The notes below the pieces were generated by a model. The model saw only the letters and a program-made list of their open reading frames with translations, was not told the DNA's origin and made no database searches. Both the position numbers and the translations under genes were made by a program. Below, in pieces: positions 7,279 through 44,742 of a DNA stretch of 64,000 bases. The stretch is from an uncultured Verrucomicrobiae bacterium (lineage in GTDB: Bacteria; Verrucomicrobiota; Verrucomicrobiia; Chthoniobacterales; Chthoniobacteraceae), in NCBI GenBank assembly GCA_963769025.1, contig CAVYKI010000010.1, positions 1 through 64,000 of the forward strand, read 5' to 3'. Position 1 is the first letter of the stretch, and every line of letters begins with the position of its first letter.

Positions 7279-8559
7279 ATGACGAGCGCACCCGCACCTC
7301 CGACACCCCTGACCAAGCGCGGCACCGCGCCGCCCGCGCGCAGCCCGGGCCGGCGCGTGCTGCGGAAAATGATGCTCGTCGCCGCGGGAATCGCGATCGG
7401 CGCGCTCGCCACCCGCTTCATCCCGGGCAGGACGAGCACCGCTGCGATCGCGTCCGAACTCGGCACCGCCGTAAGGCCTGGCCCATGGGGCGAGCTTTAC
7501 ACCGTCCCATTCCACATCGCCGCACCGGACGAACTGCTCCCCGTCCGCACCATCGAAGCCGCCGGCACGCACTGGGTGTTCAAAAATTCCACCCGCACCG
7601 AGCTCACCAACCTGCTGGAATCCGCCGGCCTCCCCACGGACCAGCGTGAGGCGTTCCTCGACCCCGCAGTCGCGCACGTCGGCATCATGGACATCGAGCT
7701 GACTCCAACCCCCGCGATGGTCGCGGCGTTGCCCGAGAAGGCGCGGGAAGTGATCTACCGGGGCCTCGCCCAATTCCCGGAGAACCGCCCGGCCTTCTTC
7801 TTCATCCACAAGGACACGCTCCACGATCGCTTCGGCGACAGCGGTGTCTCACCGGACACCCTCGCGCTCTTCCGCAAATTCTGCTGCGAGCACGGCGATT
7901 ACCTCGTCCTCGGCGGCCTCCCGGCGCTGCTTTCGCACATCCCCGGCTACGAGGAAAAGATGCGCTTTGCAAAGGCGCTCACCCGCCAGAAGACGATGCT
8001 CATCCGCCTCCGCGTGACGGACCAGTCGGACCCGAAAACGCTGGCCGCGTACTGGGCCCGGGGCCGCTGGGCGCCGAGCATCCGGACCGTCCTCGAAGGC
8101 ATCGAACATGTTCCCGGCAGCACGTTCATGAGCATCATGGCGCTGCTCCCGCCGCTGCCCGCATCGCAGCTCTACTTCTATCCCGACGTCCAGAGCGCCC
8201 AGCCCGGCACCACCGCGCCCGTGCGCGACTGCCACTGGACCTCGCAGAATTTCTTCAGCGACCCCTCCGACACGAAGCCGATGAACCCGGCGGCGTTCGC
8301 CGTGGAACTCGCGACAAGCTACTTCCCGATATCCGGCGACCCGAGCTACGGCGACGTTGTCATCCTCGAAAAACCCGACGGCGAGATCGTCCACTCCGCG
8401 GTCTTCATCGCCGACGAGATCGTCTTCACGAAAAACGGCTCGACGCCCATCTTCCCGTGGATGTTTTCCACGGTGCCGGACCTGCGGAGGCAATACTCTT
8501 TCCTCGCCCCGGAAGGCCGCCAGCTCACCCTGCGCTACTTCCGCAACAAGGGCGCGTAG
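7279..8559 (+). CDS. Hypothetical membrane-anchored protein with a possible Cys-His (papain/NlpC-like) C-terminal domain
   Basis: Long ORF with host-like codon use; N-terminal TM; DCHWTS ... GDVV ... HSAVFIAD..VFTKNG. Confidence 0.7.
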   Translation: MTSAPAPPTPLTKRGTAPPARSPGRRVLRKMMLVAAGIAIGALATRFIPGRTSTAAIASELGTAVRPGPWGELYTVPFHIAAPDELLPVRTIEAAGTHWVFKNSTRTELTNLLESAGLPTDQREAFLDPAVAHVGIMDIELTPTPAMVAALPEKAREVIYRGLAQFPENRPAFFFIHKDTLHDRFGDSGVSPDTLALFRKFCCEHGDYLVLGGLPALLSHIPGYEEKMRFAKALTRQKTMLIRLRVTDQSDPKTLAAYWARGRWAPSIRTVLEGIEHVPGSTFMSIMALLPPLPASQLYFYPDVQSAQPGTTAPVRDCHWTSQNFFSDPSDTKPMNPAAFAVELATSYFPISGDPSYGDVVILEKPDGEIVHSAVFIADEIVFTKNGSTPIFPWMFSTVPDLRRQYSFLAPEGRQLTLRYFRNKGA

Positions 8560-8627
8560 CCCGCCCGGAGACGGACCGTCGCGAATCCGCACTGGCGTTT
8601 TCCACGCGGCTCGGAAAAATCCCGCGC

Positions 8628-11541: not shown

Positions 11542-12609
11542 CTACTTTCCCACGCCGAACAGCGCGCGGAACCGCGCGGCGGATCGCGGAAACTCGGTGC
11601 CTTCCTTTTTCCCCGTCCCGCTCACGCCGGGCGAAAGCTGGTGGCCGTGGTCGCTTTCGTTGATGTCGAAATAGCAGTGAAAGGCGACGTTGTTCTTCGG
11701 GTCGGTGATGAAGGCGTGCATCTGCTCGATGAAATGCGGGTTGTCCAATCCGCCATGCTTGTGCCCCGCCCACACGAGGCCCCATTCGGGAATTGCGAGC
11801 GGCTTGCCGTGGTCCTTCGCAAACTTCGCCCAGAACGCCAGCCCGCGCGGGCTCGCCATGATCCACTCGGCCCACGCCTTTTTCTGACGCCGGGCAATCT
11901 CGTCCGCGCTCGCGTCGGCAGGCCACGGATAGGTGCCCTCGTGCCATGTCTCGTCGTACACATCCACGCCAACGAAATCCACGAACGCGTCGCCCGGCCA
12001 CGCCTCGTCGGCGGGGAACTGCTGATCGCCGAGCGTCGGGTTCCAGCAAAACTTCAGCGACTCCGCGCCGGGCACCGCGCGCATCGTCTTCACGATCTGC
12101 CGCCAGTATTCCGCAAACGCCGCCGTCTTTCCCTTCGCCCGCCACGCGTACCAGTCGCCGTTGAATTCCCACGCAGGACGCAGGATCGTTTCCGCGAGCC
12201 CATGCTTCACGAGGTTCTCCGCGAGCTGCTGGAAGTGAATGTTGTAGTCCCCCGTCGCGCCCTTCTCCAGCGACACGGGCACATTCACGCCGACATCACC
12301 CTGCTTCGGCCCGCTGCCATCCACGGGACCTGCGAGGATCGGGATGGAAAGCACAAGCCTGCGGCCTGCCTTCGCCTTCACCCACTTCGACCAATGCTCC
12401 AGCCAAAACACCGGCCAGCCGACATTCGACCACGACTCACCGCCGACGAAGTCCAGCCCCCACACCACATCGCGCCCGAGCCATTCGGCAAACGCGTCCA
12501 CTCCCTTCGTCCCATTCGGCCAGTGGTAGGTGCCGACCGGGGGCTCCGCGGCCCGTGTGTGGGCGAGCGTGAAAAGGATCGCGCAGAGAAATCGGAGCGC
12601 ACCTTTCAT
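11542..12609 (-). CDS. Secreted glycoside hydrolase family 26 (beta-mannanase-like)
   Basis: RPAWEFNGDWY, WPGDAFVDFVGVDVY, KPLAIPEWG. Confidence 0.88.
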   Translation of the reverse strand: MKGALRFLCAILFTLAHTRAAEPPVGTYHWPNGTKGVDAFAEWLGRDVVWGLDFVGGESWSNVGWPVFWLEHWSKWVKAKAGRRLVLSIPILAGPVDGSGPKQGDVGVNVPVSLEKGATGDYNIHFQQLAENLVKHGLAETILRPAWEFNGDWYAWRAKGKTAAFAEYWRQIVKTMRAVPGAESLKFCWNPTLGDQQFPADEAWPGDAFVDFVGVDVYDETWHEGTYPWPADASADEIARRQKKAWAEWIMASPRGLAFWAKFAKDHGKPLAIPEWGLVWAGHKHGGLDNPHFIEQMHAFITDPKNNVAFHCYFDINESDHGHQLSPGVSGTGKKEGTEFPRSAARFRALFGVGK

Positions 12610-12926
12610 CGCCGGGATTCGTCAAAAAAATCGCCAAACACCGGCGGGATCTTCCGCGCAACGCAGCGCAAGCTTGTTCCATCTGCGAGCAGCCGCCGCT
12701 GGAGCGCCGATGCATTTTCCGCCGAGCCGCGCACATATTCGATCACCGGACGCCGCTCGGTGAACCGATCGCGATAAGGGTGGCGCGGATCGAGCCAGTG
12801 CGCCAGCAGCCGCGCACGCATCGCCGGTCGCGCCCACATGCGGCGGCCATATTCGAAGCGCGCGATGTCGTCGTAGTTTGGGTAAGCGCCCCAAATCGCT
12901 GTGAACTCGTCGGCGCTCATTGTCAT
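12606..12926 (-). CDS. Hypothetical protein
   Basis: About 106-aa ORF whose stop overlaps the GH26 start (ATGA). Confidence 0.55.
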   Translation of the reverse strand: MTMSADEFTAIWGAYPNYDDIARFEYGRRMWARPAMRARLLAHWLDPRHPYRDRFTERRPVIEYVRGSAENASALQRRLLADGTSLRCVARKIPPVFGDFFDESRR

Positions 12927-12982
12927 GGCCTGAATTTCAACTGGCTTGCCCGATTGCAATTCGAGTTCTTCCCGGACCCTAC

Positions 12983-13195
12983 TCACGCAAACGCGAGCCT
13001 GCCTTTTGGCTCGGGGATCGGCCATGATGCTTCGCGCGCGGCAGTGAGATACGCGTCAATCATCTCCTCGGCATTGCGCAAAGCTTCAACCCGTGTCGCT
13101 CCATCAGTGACGATGCTCGGAAGCTCAGGCACTTCAGCAAGGAAGTGGCCATCCTGCTCGCTCCAATAAACGACGACCTCGAATTTGTTGTTCAT
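12983..13195 (-). CDS. hicB: HicB family antitoxin
   Basis: FEVVVYWSEQDGHFLAEVPELPS..TDGAT..EALRNAEE..PIPEPKG. Confidence 0.92.
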   Translation of the reverse strand: MNNKFEVVVYWSEQDGHFLAEVPELPSIVTDGATRVEALRNAEEMIDAYLTAAREASWPIPEPKGRLAFA

Positions 13196-13437
13196 AGTAG
13201 CTGGTTGTTTTGAAGCGCTTTGCGGGCCTGCCGGACTTGATAAGCTTTAGCTTTCCCGCCCTGCGGTTGCAAGTTGATCGCTTCGGCCATGCCGGGCTTC
13301 CGGAAAAAATGATGGCTTCCCGCGATGCGCATTTCAAAGCCGAGCCTCTGGAGCAACTGACACATCTCAGCGAAGTCCCACGCGGCATCCCGCTGCGGGT
13401 CACGCAACCGCTCCAGCAATTTGTCGTGTTTGCTCAC
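13192..13437 (-). CDS. hicA: HicA family toxin (mRNA interferase)
   Basis: LLQRLGFEMRIAGSHHFF...INLQP..GKAKAYQVRQ; overlaps the thrS stop and the hicB start. Confidence 0.9.
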   Translation of the reverse strand: MSKHDKLLERLRDPQRDAAWDFAEMCQLLQRLGFEMRIAGSHHFFRKPGMAEAINLQPQGGKAKAYQVRQARKALQNNQLL

Positions 13438-15965
13438 GCACGCCGCTCTCTGATCGCCGCAAGGATGTCCGCCACCGCCTCGTCGCGTTTCTTCGCGCCT
13501 TGCGGGCCTTTGCCGTGGATGCGAACGCTCACATTTCCCGCTTCCAGATCGCGTCCGCCGATGACGAGCATGTGGTGGACTTTCATCGTCTCGGCATTTG
13601 CGATCTTGGCTTTGATGGGTTCGTTCAGCGCGTCGAGCGTCGCGCGCACTCCCGCGGCGCGCAGCTCGGCGACGATGCCCTTCGCGTAGGCGAGCAGCGG
13701 CTCATCGTCCCCGAGCGTGAGCACGCGCACCTGCTCGGGCGCGAGCCAGAGCGGGAAATTGCCGGCGTAGTGCTCGATGAGGAAGCCGATGAACCGCTCG
13801 TGCGTGCCGAGCGGCGCGCGGTGGATGCAGAGCGGCGTCTTGTCCGTGTTGTCGCGGTCGCGGTAGGTGAGGCCGAATTTCGCGGGCACGGCGAAGTCCA
13901 CCTGGTTCGTGGCGATGGTGAATTCGCGGCCGATGGCGCTCCACACCTGCACGTCAATCTTCGGGCCGTAGAACGCGGCCTCGTTCGGCACCTCGATGTA
14001 GTTGATGCCGCTGCGCTGGAGGACGCCGCGGACCATGTCCTCGGTCTTCAGCCACAGCGCGGAGTTGTCCACGAACTTCTGGCCGAGCTTCGCCGGGTCG
14101 TGCGTGGAGAAGCGCATGAGGTATTTCTCGATGCCGAAGATTTTGAAATACTTGAGATACATCTCGTTCACGGCATTGAACTCGGACTCGAACTGTTCCT
14201 CGGTGAGGTAAATGTGCGCGTCGTTCATCTGCATGGAGCGCACGCGCATGAGGCCGAAAAGTTCGCCGCTCTGCTCGTAGCGGTAGCAGGTGCCGTATTC
14301 GGCGAGCCGCAGCGGAAGGTCGCGGTAACTGCGCGGCACCGCTCCGAAGAGCTTGTGATGGTGCGGGCAGTTCATGGCCTTGAGGTAGTAGCGGTCTCCA
14401 GTCGCCGTGGTAAAAGAAGGCGCGTCGTCCGCGGGTTTGCGTGCCTCGGGTAGGGTGGGCGTCCCGCCTGCCGTGCCGGGCGTCCCGCCTGGCACATCGG
14501 ACGTGGGACTGGCTCCCGCCTGCACATCCGGCGTCCAAACCCATGGATAGTTCTCCTCCGGCCCAACGAGATTCTCCCCGCGCGGATTGTTGCAGATGTA
14601 GAGAAACTTCTCCTCCAAATCCGAATCCCCGCGCACATAGCGATCGTATCGCTCCTGCTCCCACACCTCGCCCGTCGTCCCCTCCGCCTTGTTGATTTCC
14701 TTCGCGGTGAAACTCTTGATCGAGTGCATCAAATCGCCGAGCGGCCAGAACACGCTTTCGTCTTTCGCATTCTTCTCCTTTACCCACGGCTGAAGCAAAA
14801 AATGGACGTGATCGGGCATGACCACGGCGGCGAACAGTTCGTAGCGGACCCCGTGGAAATGGCGGAGAGCATTCAGGACGATGGTGCGCGCATCCGGCGA
14901 GAGGACGCGGTGGTCTCGCGTGGAGACGGTGACGAAATAGATCGCCCACGGTTTTTCGAAGTGCGGGAGGCGGCGGTGTTCCTTTTCGTAACGAACGCCT
15001 GTCGTGCGTTCGGATGTGCCAGGCGGGACGCCCGGCACGGCAGGCGGGACGCCCACCCTACCCGAGGCACTGCCCTTCGCCATTGGCGCGCCTGTGGTTC
15101 CCGCGCGCTCGTTTTCCAAAATCATCGGCGGGAACATGCTCTCCGCGTAATACGGCAGATGCCCGCTCGTGAGATACAGGTTCTCCCGCGCGAGGTGCGG
15201 CGTGCGCACGCGGTCGTAGCCGGCGGCGAACTCGGTTTCCTTCGCGAGCTTTTCGAGCTCCTCCAGCAGCACCGTGCCGCGCGGCAGCCACAGCGGCAGG
15301 CCGGGGCCCACGTCGTCGTCGAACGTGAAAAGCTCCAGCTCCTTGCCGAGCTTGCGATGGTCGCGCTTCTTCGCCTCCTCGAGCATCGTGAAATACTCGT
15401 CCATCTGCGTCTTGTTCTTGAACGCCGTGCCGTAGATGCGCTGGAGCTGCGGGTTTTTCTCGTCGCCCTTGTAGTAGGCGCTCGCGACGTGCGTGAGCCG
15501 GAACGCGCCGATGTTCCCCGTGCGCATGACGTGCGGCCCGGCGCACAGGTCGAGGAAGTCGCCGTTGCGGAAGAGCGAGATTTCCTCGCCCTCGGGGATG
15601 TCCGCGAGGTTGCCGATTTTGAATTTGCTCGGATTGCCCGGCCGCTCGCCGAGCCCGCCGAGGCGTCCGCTTTCCGCGAGCTTCACCGCCTCGTCGCGCG
15701 ACACAACCGTGCGCTCGAAGACGTTGTTCGCCTTGATCTCCTTTTTCATCTCCTCCTCGATGCGCGCGAAGTCCTCCGGCGAGATGCGGTGCTTCAAATC
15801 CACGTCGTAGTAAAAGCCATTCTCCACCGGCGGCCCCGCGGCAAACTGCGCCTCCGGCCAGATGCGGAGGATGGCCGTGGCGAGCACATGCGCCGCGCTG
15901 TGGCGCAGCCGCTCAAGGTCGGTCATCTGGTGGCGTTGCTCGATGGTCTTGCGTTCGTCGGACAT
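13434..15965 (-). CDS. thrS: Threonine--tRNA ligase with an in-frame insertion of about 235 aa
   Basis: RHSAAHVLA, DLCAGPHV, RDHRKLGKEL, MNCPHH, GLMRVR, EAAFYGPKID, HRAPLGTHERF, WLAPEQVR; no stop across 843 codons. Confidence 0.97.
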   Translation of the reverse strand: MSDERKTIEQRHQMTDLERLRHSAAHVLATAILRIWPEAQFAAGPPVENGFYYDVDLKHRISPEDFARIEEEMKKEIKANNVFERTVVSRDEAVKLAESGRLGGLGERPGNPSKFKIGNLADIPEGEEISLFRNGDFLDLCAGPHVMRTGNIGAFRLTHVASAYYKGDEKNPQLQRIYGTAFKNKTQMDEYFTMLEEAKKRDHRKLGKELELFTFDDDVGPGLPLWLPRGTVLLEELEKLAKETEFAAGYDRVRTPHLARENLYLTSGHLPYYAESMFPPMILENERAGTTGAPMAKGSASGRVGVPPAVPGVPPGTSERTTGVRYEKEHRRLPHFEKPWAIYFVTVSTRDHRVLSPDARTIVLNALRHFHGVRYELFAAVVMPDHVHFLLQPWVKEKNAKDESVFWPLGDLMHSIKSFTAKEINKAEGTTGEVWEQERYDRYVRGDSDLEEKFLYICNNPRGENLVGPEENYPWVWTPDVQAGASPTSDVPGGTPGTAGGTPTLPEARKPADDAPSFTTATGDRYYLKAMNCPHHHKLFGAVPRSYRDLPLRLAEYGTCYRYEQSGELFGLMRVRSMQMNDAHIYLTEEQFESEFNAVNEMYLKYFKIFGIEKYLMRFSTHDPAKLGQKFVDNSALWLKTEDMVRGVLQRSGINYIEVPNEAAFYGPKIDVQVWSAIGREFTIATNQVDFAVPAKFGLTYRDRDNTDKTPLCIHRAPLGTHERFIGFLIEHYAGNFPLWLAPEQVRVLTLGDDEPLLAYAKGIVAELRAAGVRATLDALNEPIKAKIANAETMKVHHMLVIGGRDLEAGNVSVRIHGKGPQGAKKRDEAVADILAAIRERRA
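14441..14498 (+). repeat. Inverted repeat arm (GTAG-REP plus a second hairpin)
   Basis: GTGCCTCGGGTAGGGTGGGCGTCCCGCCTGCCGTGCCGGGCGTCCCGCCTGGCACATC; exact reverse complement of 15013-15070. Confidence 0.95.
15013..15070 (-). repeat. Inverted repeat arm (partner of 14441-14498)
   Basis: 58/58 reverse-complement match. Confidence 0.95.
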
Positions 15966-16008
15966 AGGAAAAGGGCGGCGAAGCTAGGCGAGCCGCGGCG
16001 CAGGCGCA

Positions 16009-16117
16009 AGGGTAGGGCGCGCTCGCCGAGCGCGCCCCAACTTTTGCGGAGGGGCTTCGAGAAACGGCAGGCGCGGGGTAGGATGCGTGGGCGCTTTCGG
16101 CGAAAGCGCCCTACCCT
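16009..16117. repeat. REPIN (inverted pair of GTAG-REPs) upstream of thrS
   Basis: AGGGTAGGGCGCGCTCGCCGAGCGCGCCC (16009-16037) and inverted AGGGTAGGGCGCTTTCGCCGAAAGCGCCC (16089-16117). Confidence 0.8.
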
Positions 16118-16129
16118 GGCGCCCCGCGG

Positions 16130-17630
16130 TCACTGCGCGTCGAGCGCGCGGATGGGGAAGAGGTCCGACTTTGTGTGCTGCTCCTTCATCAGGGCGCTGA
16201 GCTTTGCGACCACGTCGGGATGATTGTCGGCGACGTCGTTGCTCTCGCCGATGTCCTTCGCGAGGTCGAAGAGCTGCGGGTCGCGCGGCTTCAGCTTCGC
16301 CTTCGGGCCGCCGTGGAGTTTCTCGAGGATGAGCTTCCAGTCGCCGACGCGGATGCACGCCTGCCCGCCGTAGCCGGGCGATTCGCGGTAGAGGAAAGGC
16401 CGCGGCTCCTGCGGCTTGCCGAGGAGCGTGGGCGCCATGCTGATGCCGTCGATGCCCGCAGGAGTGGCGGCCTTTTCGCCGATGAGCTCGAGGAGCGTCG
16501 GCATCCAGTCCTCGAACCCGCTCACGCGATCGCTCACGGTGCCAGCGGCGATGCGGCCCTTCCAGCGCACGATGGTCGGCACGCGAATGCCGCCCTCGAA
16601 CATCGAGCCCTTGCGCCCGTTCAGCGGCCCGGCGCTCTCGAAGAAATCCGTGTCGGTCCCGCCGAGCTTGCCGTAGAGCGGGCCGTTGTCGCTGGTGAAG
16701 ACGAAGATGGTGCGCTCATCGAGGCCGAGTTCCTTCACGAGATCGGCCAGACCGGCCAATCTCGCGATCCATGCGCGTGACCATCGCGGCGTACGCAGCG
16801 CGCGGGGCACGATGCGGCAGGTAGCCATTGCCGCCGGGATAGGGCTCCTCGGGAAATTTTCCCGCATACTCCGTGAGCGAATCCTCCGGCACCTGCAGCG
16901 CGAGGTGCGGCACGGTCGTGGGGTAGTAGAGGAAAAACGGGCGGTCCTTGTTGTCCTGGACGAACTCCAGCGCCTCGGCGCTGATCAGGTCGGGCGCGTA
17001 GTCCTTGCCGGAAAACTTGCGCGTAGGTCTCCGAGGAATTCGAGATCGGCGCCCTCGGCGAGTTTCTGGTGCGCGGAGAATGCCGGGTTGTCCAGGGCGC
17101 GCTTCTTGTCGTTGTCCCAGAGGTGCGTCGGGTAGTAATTGTGCGCGACGCCCTGGCAGTTGTAGCCGAAGAAACGGTCGAAGCCCTGCTTCAGCGGATC
17201 GCCCGTCGAGCCCACCGGACCGAGGCCCCATTTTCCAAAACCGCCGCTCGTGTAGCCGAGCTTTTGCAGCGTGAGCGGGAAGGTCAGTTCGCCCGCGGGC
17301 ACGGGCGTCTGTCCTTCCTCCCACTTCGGGTCGAGCGCCTTTGCGTTCCCGTTGTCGCGGATGAATGCGTGGCCGGGGTGCTTGCCGGTCATGCAGCACG
17401 CAGCGCGACGGCGCGCAGACGTTGTTGCCCGAGTAGTGCTGCGTGAGCTTCATGCCCTCGGCGGCGATGCGATCGATGTTCGGCGTGCGGATCTTTTTCT
17501 GCCCGAATGCACCGACATCGCCGTAGCCCAGATCGTCGGCGAGGATGAAGATGATGTTCGGGCGCTGCTCCGCGGCGTGCGCGACAGCGGCGAGGAGGAG
17601 CGATGCGAGGAGGAAACGCGGTGCTTTCAT
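16130..17630 (-). CDS. Arylsulfatase (formylglycine-dependent), split by at least 3 frameshifts
   Basis: [54 protein letters not shown] spread across three ORFs; shifts near 17393, 17030 and 16760. Confidence 0.85.
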
Positions 17631-17692
17631 GGGAGGAGGCGATATGGAGTGGGCGCGCGGGGAGTGCAAGCGGAGGCTGCGACCGCCAAGCG

Positions 17693-17757
17693 GCCGCCGG
17701 GAGGAGGCGGGGCCTTCGAATTGGAATCTCAACCCGCCTCCTTCCGCCGGCGGCTAC
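17693..17757. repeat. REP pair (GTAGCCGCCGGCGGAAGGAGGCGGG family)
   Basis: Full REP on the - strand at 17733-17757 and a degenerate inverted arm at 17693-17711; near-identical copy at 25070-25094. Confidence 0.7.
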
Positions 17758-21177: not shown

Positions 21178-21258
21178 GGGCGGGGAAACTGCGCGAAATC
21201 CCGTCGCGAGGGGAAGCCGAAACCGCACCGCATTTTATCCGTGAACCTGGAAAAAAGT

Positions 21259-21354
21259 TCCGTCAGGGAACCACGACAAGGAAGGGCAGGCTACCGTTGC
21301 TGCCTTCCGGCTCTGGCGGGGTTTGCCAGCCTTCAATCCATGGCCCCTGACGGA
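21259..21354 (-). ncRNA. ffs: Signal recognition particle RNA (small bacterial SRP, 4.5S)
   Basis: Minus strand reads TCCGTCAGGGGCCA...CCCGCCAGAGCCGGAAGGCAGCAACGGTAG...TGGTTCCCTGACGGA: the helix-8 GGAA tetraloop with CAG/AGCA internal loops, a long closing stem, then a T-run. Confidence 0.9.

Positions 21355-44669: not shown

Positions 44670-44742
<73 letters not shown>

Follow-up and report, generated by a model that had tools for sequence, protein, structure and literature searches.

REP-associated tyrosine transposases (RAYTs, or TnpA_REP) are known from REPtrons, in which the transposase gene is combined with repetitive extragenic palindromic (REP) sequences or bacterial interspersed mosaic elements (BIMEs), as in E. 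coli, Stenotrophomonas, and Marinomonas. The literature mostly presents RAYTs as domesticated genes present in single copy (10.1101/119735, PMC5581495), and the usual picture is that of a gene tending a population of extragenic repeats. Here we describe a cassette inside thrS, the threonyl-tRNA synthetase (ThrRS) gene, in a 64-kb stretch of DNA from an uncultured Verrucomicrobiae bacterium (contig CAVYKI010000010.1, positions 1 to 64,000; hereafter the window). It represents a branch of RAYTs that departs from this picture, with the gene and its two REP ends forming one frame-transparent unit inside essential genes, strongly selected and moved between genes and lineages. The cassette is probably a read-through RAYT element, that is, an HUH-Y1 domain between inverted GTAG-headed REPs, placed in a ThrRS loop, belonging to a Verrucomicrobiota family and moved over the course of evolution. 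The gene and its cassette comprise the following features.

13434..15965, minus strand: thrS open reading frame (ORF), 843 aa, with the cassette inside; TIGR00418 567.9 bits against a cut-off of 383.65; Pfam tRNA_SAD, tRNA-synt_2b, and HGTP_anticodon.
15072..15965, minus strand: N-terminal part of ThrRS (codons 1–298), covering the editing domain, the beginning of the catalytic domain, and a loop spacer of 20 aa that leads up to the cassette; residues 17–285 align with residues 70–325 of S. aureus ThrRS (1nyq).
15010..15070, minus strand: 5′ arm (in thrS sense), a GTAG-headed REP hairpin 1 plus hairpin 2, encoding ..SGRVGVPPAVPGVPPGTS..; R1 covariance model 44.5 bits, E 5e-6.
14541..14963, minus strand: RAYT core, protein residues 335–475; NF047646, family profile matching 4er8, dN/dS 0.07–0.12.
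14802..14810, minus strand: HUH motif, the His-Val-His of MPDHVH (MPDHVH at 14802–14819); invariant H88 and H90, aligned with the HUH of 4er8.
14598..14600, minus strand: putative catalytic tyrosine, the Y of YICNNP; invariant Y158, aligned with YIYINP of 4er8.
14441..14501, plus strand (the REP strand): 3′ arm (in thrS sense), encoding ..DVPGGTPGTAGGTPTLPE..; R1 covariance model 44.5 bits.
13437..14440, minus strand: C-terminal part of ThrRS, with a 16-aa loop spacer, the remainder of the catalytic domain, and the anticodon-binding domain; residues 527–840 align with residues 330–641 of S. aureus ThrRS.

Like REPtrons, including the one of the E. coli enzyme TnpArep (4er8), the cassette combines an HUH-Y1 transposase, whose catalytic tyrosine lies in a YxxxNP helix, with REPs that have a GTAG-type head followed by a hairpin of 7–8 bp with a 3–4 nt loop, covarying stems, and an inverted orientation on either side of the gene. 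Unlike in REPtrons, the frame runs through both REPs without a start or stop of its own, and the unit is embedded in the frame of housekeeping genes. A dispersed population of its REPs was not observed (0 further copies in the window, and the shuffled level in 574 kb of flanks), cassettes occur several per genome or even per gene, and their phylogeny is incongruent. Single copy number and vertical inheritance, given as RAYT traits in 10.1101/119735, do not describe this branch, in view of genes with two cassettes, assemblies with cassettes in two genes, and rejections in approximately unbiased (AU) tests. A phylogenomic survey of the superfamily set aside 'unexpectedly long proteins', taking them for fusions or errors of annotation, as reported in PMC6006769, and the fused cassettes account for such proteins.

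Intragenic REPs and Rickettsia palindromic elements (RPEs), as described by Di Nocera et al. 2013 (PMC3733652), resemble the cassette in being in-frame palindromes that are translated into short Gly/Pro/Ala/Arg-rich peptides. According to that paper, the verrucomicrobium Opitutus terrae is richest in in-frame REPs, and its peptides, e.g. GTGVPPV and HGRDARAT, resemble GRVGVPPA and TRDACAPQ of the cassette. The elements reported there are single REPs or dimers of 7–53 aa with no transposase inside, whereas the cassette insert includes a whole transposase, and four supplementary files of the paper do not mention RAYTs or transposases. Like the intragenic REPs and RPEs, the cassette has in-frame palindromes that are most likely translated within a functional gene; unlike these non-autonomous elements, it encodes a RAYT core between its arms.

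The cassette also resembles elements of the IS200/IS605 type (IS608, ISDra2), in which a Y1 HUH transposase acts on subterminal hairpins in single-stranded DNA. The ends of these insertion sequences (ISs) are not inverted repeats of each other, whereas the cassette arms form a 58-bp perfect inverted repeat, and the IS transposase has its own gene signals, is an obligate dimer according to PMC3479197, and involves no host read-through. The cassette falls outside the IS200/IS605 group, since its Y1_Tnp score of 20 bits stays below the cut-off of 23 and it has no start or stop of its own. Inteins with homing endonucleases are similar as selfish in-frame inserts of patchy presence in conserved, often essential proteins (synthetases, helicases, and replication and repair enzymes). 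They differ from the cassette, which has no Hint domain or conserved splice-junction residues, presumably stays in the mature protein, and encodes an HUH transposase instead of a homing endonuclease. An intein was considered and rejected because no Hint family was found at E ≤ 0.01 (Pfam) and the junction residues varied among carriers, with no conserved splice-junction residues. In IStrons, a group I intron combined with an IS200/IS605-type transposon, a transposon of the same broad superfamily is made harmless inside genes through RNA self-splicing, as described in PMC4227781, whereas the cassette would be harmless through an open frame and tolerated protein insertion. Our literature search, covering work outside subscription journals, returned no description of a RAYT nested in frame. 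In-frame single REPs and dimers are already known, and the in-frame nested RAYT cassette looks undescribed.

The arms of the cassette in the window are nearly identical. As the initial annotation had stated, 14441–14498 is the exact reverse complement of 15013–15070, a 58-bp perfect inverted repeat, and the pair extends over 61 nt (14441–14501 and 15010–15070) with 98% complementarity, the outer 58 nt being perfect (58/58). This perfect match is the longest among 70 cassettes. Inverted repeats of at least 26 nt with arms no more than 3 kb apart numbered just three in the window; two of them are registers of the cassette arm pair, and the third is a REP doublet (16003–16037/16089–16123). Our analysis also reproduced the frame arithmetic of the initial annotation: the 630 bp between the outer arm ends amount to 210 codons in the thrS frame, beginning at codon position 2 of codon 299; deletion of the cassette in silico joins A (15071) to GC (complement of 14440–14439) and gives ...AKG-S-KPADD... 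in a 633-aa ThrRS; and both arms are stop-free in the thrS frame, the quoted Gly/Pro peptides being present in the ORF translation. The 210-codon figure is not a property of the family, as the outer-to-outer span was a multiple of three no more often than expected by chance, in 20 of 70 cassettes with arms 20 nt or longer.

As previously proposed, each arm consists of two tandem hairpins; they lie behind a GGGTAG head, and the arm folds on the GTAG strand with −17.2 and −18.9 kcal/mol (z −1.7 and −3.0), while the complementary strand shows no such folding (−14.9 kcal/mol, z −0.7). Hairpin folding on one strand only is a hallmark of REPs. The cassette lacks start and stop codons of its own and is one open frame from end to end. 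A promoter and terminator scan of 13000–16500 stayed at chance level, an Rfam search found no family at the cassette, and its base composition was not distinct at the 300-nt scale; the GC content at third codon positions (GC3) alone differed. An in-frame ATG lies at 15083–15085 (minus strand; thrS codon 294), five codons ahead of the 5′ arm (..PMAKGSASGRVGV..). Its context is similar to the short leaders of free-standing relatives, e.g. MSAASSRSGSTRVSRA.., it is missing from other thrS carriers, and it could be a relic of the RAYT's own start or an internal start.

Judged by its sequence, the insert between the arms is a RAYT of the HUH-Y1 type with intact HUH and tyrosine motifs. NCBIfam NF047646 matched the whole protein with 73.9 bits (residues 335–475) and the insert alone with 77.8 bits (E 7e-22), just under the cut-off of 80. 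A profile built from relatives matched the structure 4er8 of E. coli TnpArep (E 1.9e-9), in register at both the HUH motif and the YxxxNP helix, and also the IS200/IS605-type structures 2xm3 and 2fyx at E of about 4e-3 to 3e-2; a PDB search with the single sequence yielded nothing useful. Five residues (H88, H90, D143, R147, and Y158) were invariant in an alignment of 24 relatives, and by analogy we take Y158 to be the catalytic tyrosine. Both motifs were kept in 78/80 cassettes and in 61/62 fused ThrRS.

The host gene encodes a bacterial class II ThrRS, with TIGR00418 above its cut-off and editing, catalytic, and anticodon-binding domains present. The enzyme begins at the editing domain, without the N-terminal TGS part (the alignment starts at residue 70 of S. 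aureus ThrRS). The insert and its spacers (residues 286–526) stand in for four residues, 326–329, of S. aureus ThrRS, just ahead of the zinc-binding NCPHH motif, and by alignment the insertion site corresponds to a hypervariable surface loop of the catalytic domain. In relatives without the cassette the same loop has 15–21 aa or unrelated inserts of 54–112 aa, and short-loop ThrRS of 617–623 aa exist. Eight relatives (P0044, P0047, P0048, P0084, P0089, P0099, P0100, and P0110) carry loop inserts of 54–112 aa that are fast-evolving and helix-like, without RAYT or REP; the tail of the P0047 insert (..ARAADAFTTTG) is similar by eye to the window's post-cassette spacer (ARKPADDAPSFTTATG). The nearest host relatives of the window ThrRS (94–95% identical) have an unrelated insert of 83–89 aa in the loop and no RAYT.

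The cassettes form a large Verrucomicrobiota family that lies in frame in loops of conserved housekeeping proteins. A scan of species-representative genomes gave at least 602 pattern matches and at least 516 RAYT relatives, of which the best 80 were kept and 79 loci analysed, so that the prevalence is a lower bound. In 72/79 loci the RAYT was in frame inside a long host ORF, namely that of alanyl-tRNA synthetase (AlaRS, 32), RecG (22), ThrRS (9), MetH (7), or CarB (2); the other seven were free-standing ORFs of 220–337 aa with no adjoining host halves. Almost all of the 79 loci were titled Verrucomicrobiota metagenome-assembled genomes, and four were titled Bifidobacteriaceae, Bifidobacterium, or Acidobacteriota. 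Among the 120 best ThrRS relatives, 72 had RAYT motifs in the same loop, 47 had none, and one had a degenerate HUH. Further hosts among cluster representatives included ValRS, PriA, PurH, DnaK, Ham1, BirA, shikimate kinase, a glycyl-radical enzyme, and DNA methylases. The inserts in RecG and AlaRS, too, take the place of a short connecting segment. Proteins of 463–1476 aa that matched the RAYT region at E ≤ 1e-10 numbered 1042, all of them fusions among the matches listed (120/120), and many of them carry names such as 'threonyl-tRNA synthetase/REP element-mobilizing transposase RayT', assigned by the pipeline of the Joint Genome Institute (JGI). A search of a plasmid collection gave just three RAYT-like matches, all distant (28–34% identity).

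Two cassettes were found within one ORF in L025 (AlaRS) and L043 (MetH), L061 has a second RAYT match in a frame-broken metH, and in four assemblies cassettes occurred in two different genes. The second MetH site presents a series of filled, REP-only, and empty states: L058 has a REP doublet (8385–8560) and no RAYT exactly where others have a second cassette, L072 has a pair of REP-model matches about 100 bp apart near the same coordinates (8402–8535), and L062 has no REP there. A RAYT-less derivative is also found in ThrRS, where P0116 retains a lone REP peptide in the loop. In L059, L061, L072, and L074, all of them long-read assemblies, the host gene resumes in other frames past the RAYT, and these frame breaks are likely to be indel errors.

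REPs of this type are concentrated at the cassettes. A head-plus-hairpin scan over the 79 loci found 145 REPs at cassettes, 17 elsewhere in host ORFs, and 27 in 574 kb outside, where the density equals the shuffled level (36 matches in shuffles of all sequence), and the arm covariance model gave 182 matches at E ≤ 0.01 over the loci. In the window there were no further arm copies (at most 3 mismatches; covariance model with filters off), the next match reaching 16.2 bits (E 0.47). The initial annotation had held that a lack of other REP copies in the genome, along with a lack of shortened DNA or RNA species, would argue against current mobility. The lack of REP copies holds for the window, but it is the rule for the cassette family and no evidence against mobility. 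The sole locus resembling a classical REP-rich region was L015 (5488–9388), where at least ten REP matches, alternating in orientation, lie around a free-standing RAYT in an open frame without a start codon.

The RAYT and host phylogenies disagree. The ThrRS-borne RAYT cores fell into two superclades of 28 and 34, parted by a branch of 96% support and interleaved with RAYTs of AlaRS, RecG, and MetH. Traced on the host tree of ThrRS, superclade membership switches at least 12 times, and a RAYT is gained or lost at least seven times. AU tests rejected both a single clade of superclade I hosts (delta lnL 406, p 2e-11) and a single clade of ThrRS-borne RAYTs (delta lnL 156, p 5e-4). Among hosts about 85% identical to the window ThrRS, the RAYT cores share either about 80% or about 50% identity with the window core, and the nearest RAYT (83% identical) sits in P0002, whose host part is 89% identical. 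A simple co-divergence of host and RAYT was given up, as their identities correlate weakly (Mantel r 0.29). GC3 was lower in the RAYT core than in the host in 50/55 loci, with a median difference of 0.079 (window: 0.78 vs 0.87–0.90). Because the host and RAYT trees are incongruent and the RAYT GC3 is lower, we conclude that cassettes moved between genes and lineages.

Strong purifying selection acts on the RAYT core, to the same degree as on ThrRS itself: between thrS carriers its dN/dS is 0.07–0.12, compared with 0.04–0.29 for the ThrRS host parts. In the arm and linker codons, dN/dS was 0.3–1.8 (seven pairs, 18–29 codons per pair), and dS was 0.1–0.5 in five of the seven pairs vs 0.5–1.5 around them, the exceptions reaching about 1 and 3 in WIN-L001 and L060-L066. 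An alignment of 95/100 arms, leaving out three out-of-register arms and both L076 arms (which match L074), showed covariation in hairpin 1: both sides change in 7/8 pairs, in 112 cells vs 31.7 in shuffles (0/500 shuffles as high), with a score of 0.494 vs at most 0.117 for slid partners. Since hairpin 1 covaries, arm dS is low, and arm dN/dS is 0.3–1.8, the arms are evidently kept as nucleic-acid hairpins while the encoded peptide is free to vary. These results support the earlier suggestion that the arms double as transposase substrates and flexible linkers, in the form of REP-type nucleic-acid signals and tolerated linkers.

Across 50 cassettes, arm similarity starts sharply 2–3 nt outside the GGG head, after T-C-C/T, and 47/50 share one reading frame through the left REP. 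Free-standing relatives also translate through both REPs, starting just outside the left REP and stopping just past the right one. The kept frame of the left REP and this read-through in free-standing relatives indicate that the frame-transparent REP-to-REP unit is a trait of the family.

For a read-through RAYT element the following course may be proposed. The cassette is most likely translated as an internal ThrRS domain, with the REP-encoded Gly/Pro/Ala/Arg-rich stretches as linkers. The fused RAYT domain would bind the GTAG hairpin of its own arms in single-stranded DNA and cut beside it, and, if the chemistry of the family applies, cutting and joining at its own REP ends would move or replace cassettes. 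Living inside essential genes would shield the element from deletion and supply its expression. The perfect 58-bp arms in the window may reflect arm-to-arm homogenisation or young age, with no functional need. A bolder version, in which the cassettes are 'translated transposons', autonomous mobile elements with a lifestyle that sets them apart as a class, that have no promoter, start, or stop, are expressed solely inside an essential host protein, and whose RAYT still mobilises the REP-to-REP unit into in-frame loops or REP landing pads, is conceivable but somewhat less likely to be true than false.

Several points weigh against a mobile read-through element. The NF047646 match, although it spans profile positions 4–145 of 146, is 2.2 bits below the curated cut-off of 80, and the Pfam Y1_Tnp score of the window copy (20 bits) is below its cut-off of 23. 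The embedded state is not the sole RAYT state, because 93 of 150 RAYT cluster representatives are short proteins (free-standing or fragments). The arm dN/dS values come from few codons, all trees are 'quick' builds, and the incongruence could come from recombination of thrS or other host-gene segments between lineages instead of transposition. A second thrS may also exist elsewhere in the source genome, outside the window. As to the enzyme, E. coli TnpArep is reported to be a Mn-dependent monomer whose C-terminal tail has an auto-inhibitory effect (PMC3479197), and the RAYT enzymes studied are reported to cut at CT next to the REP and, in vitro, neither to bind nor to cut the inverted REP in E. 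coli and S. maltophilia (PMC8266576). On our reading of these reports, known RAYTs, being monomeric, auto-inhibited, and inactive on the inverted REP, offer no ready way to move a unit of REP, gene, and inverted REP. The observation nearest to the CT cleavage site of RAYTs is the conserved T-C-C/T just outside the head.

Of the rival explanations, the one that survives best, although we regard it as unlikely, is that of an exapted domain, in which the RAYT has long been fixed as a useful insertion domain, is now inherited vertically, and retains its inverted repeats as relics. Purifying selection on the RAYT core as strong as that on the host, the conserved catalytic motifs, the spread of RAYT-bearing ThrRS across the whole sampled ThrRS tree, and the general view of RAYTs as domesticated single-copy genes (10.1101/119735, PMC5581495) would all suit it. 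Vertical inheritance is at odds with the incongruent host and RAYT trees, with close host relatives that differ in presence or absence (at least seven changes), and with the systematically lower GC3 of the RAYT. The hosts are moreover unrelated to one another (aminoacyl-tRNA synthetases, helicases, MetH, CarB, PurH, DnaK, and more), and the arms are still under hairpin selection, which is unexpected of relics.

The initial annotation favoured either recent insertion or ongoing homogenisation, with excision through arm pairing as a further option. That the cassette arrived recently and can be precisely excised, by arm pairing in single-stranded DNA or by RAYT action, with restoration of the 633-aa ThrRS, seems to us quite improbable. 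The 58-bp arms, unmatched in length among the 70 cassettes, the lack of a RAYT in the nearest hosts, the existence of short-loop ThrRS, and a minimum-free-energy fold of 690 nt that pairs both arms and closes the cassette (−372 kcal/mol, z −13.8) are consistent with it, and IS200/IS605 relatives are reported to excise precisely from single-stranded DNA (PMC3479197). A young arrival is possible because the nearest hosts bear an unrelated insert. There is, however, no sign of a very recent donor, the nearest RAYT being that of P0002 at 83% identity; the RAYT-less derivatives P0116 and L058 retain REPs and are not clean empty sites; arm complementarity past hairpin 1 is not conserved; and the inverted REP was inactive in vitro in the two systems studied (PMC8266576). 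The inverse arm was matched in 45/47, 51/56, 47/47, and 48/56 positions in relatives, in which hairpin 2 often differs between the arms, so that long-range arm complementarity is evidently not required.

The window arms share 7 extra nt past the usual end of the family, a sequence that the closest locus, L002, has in its right arm only, and this pattern would fit arm-to-arm homogenisation. The arrangement itself is old and widespread (72/120), and the content of the loop turns over. For the copy in the window, recent insertion and homogenisation, the two options of the earlier proposal, are both plausible.

A role in RNA, with the arms forming a 58-bp stem in the thrS mRNA that regulates the message (e.g. 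through RNase III) or lets the insert leave the RNA, is very improbable. The 690-nt fold, closed by the arm–arm stem, is what one would expect of it. Yet, over 2558 positions in 70 cassettes, mismatches between the arms are not biased towards G-U on the sense strand (54 vs 66, with 80 of transversion type), the second hairpins differ between the arms in several thrS relatives, no Rfam family was found at the cassette, and the RAYT core is under protein-level selection and hence translated. Excision or RNA pairing through the arms, as proposed in the initial annotation, therefore finds no support, given the differing second hairpins, the lack of G-U bias, the REPs retained by RAYT-less derivatives, and an inverted REP reported as inactive in E. 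coli and S. maltophilia (PMC8266576). An assembly chimera or a thrS pseudogene can practically be dismissed, as nothing in the window supports it and only some long-read loci (L059, L061, L072, and L074) show frame breaks after the RAYT, whereas dozens of independent assemblies, drawn from several sources, share this architecture, all 843 codons form one open frame, and comparison of carriers shows strong purifying selection on the host parts.

A read-through RAYT element of this kind connects the in-frame REP peptides already known from Verrucomicrobia with an enzyme that may be responsible for placing them, and it would represent a second, splicing-free route for selfish DNA to hide in conserved proteins. 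If the 'translated transposon' version were true, the niche of inteins would be filled without protein splicing, and if the RAYT were active while embedded in ThrRS, AlaRS, or RecG, a housekeeping enzyme would naturally carry a working DNA-recombination domain. The cassettes also mark naturally proven permissive insertion sites in ThrRS, AlaRS, RecG, MetH, and CarB, and they make RAYT function testable where expression of the enzyme is tied to a housekeeping gene.

In the neighbourhood of thrS, a second REP-like element was found just upstream of the thrS start, between thrS and a sulfatase gene.

16003..16123, no strand assigned: second REP-like doublet with outward-facing GGGTAGG heads at 16012 (plus) and 16114 (minus) and stems unlike the cassette arms; −41.7 kcal/mol, z −3.6; about 10 bits with R1.

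GGGTAG-type heads also occur near the 5′ end of thrS in L001 and L002. The sulfatase gene (16130–17732, minus strand) appears to be broken into three overlapping ORFs that match different parts of Pfam Sulfatase, and is either a frameshifted pseudogene or affected by sequence errors. Downstream of thrS, an 81-aa ORF at 13192–13437 (minus strand) resembles the HicA toxin (PF07927, E 7e-7), and its GTG start overlaps the thrS TGA stop (GTGA), which suggests translational coupling to thrS. The next ORF (139 aa, 12606–13025) had no Pfam match. Rfam matches at the gathering score in the window were a tRNA gene (44670–44742, plus strand) and a small SRP RNA (21258–21352, minus strand), with no others. 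In the ThrRS relative P0039 (892 aa), a HicA domain is listed within the same protein.

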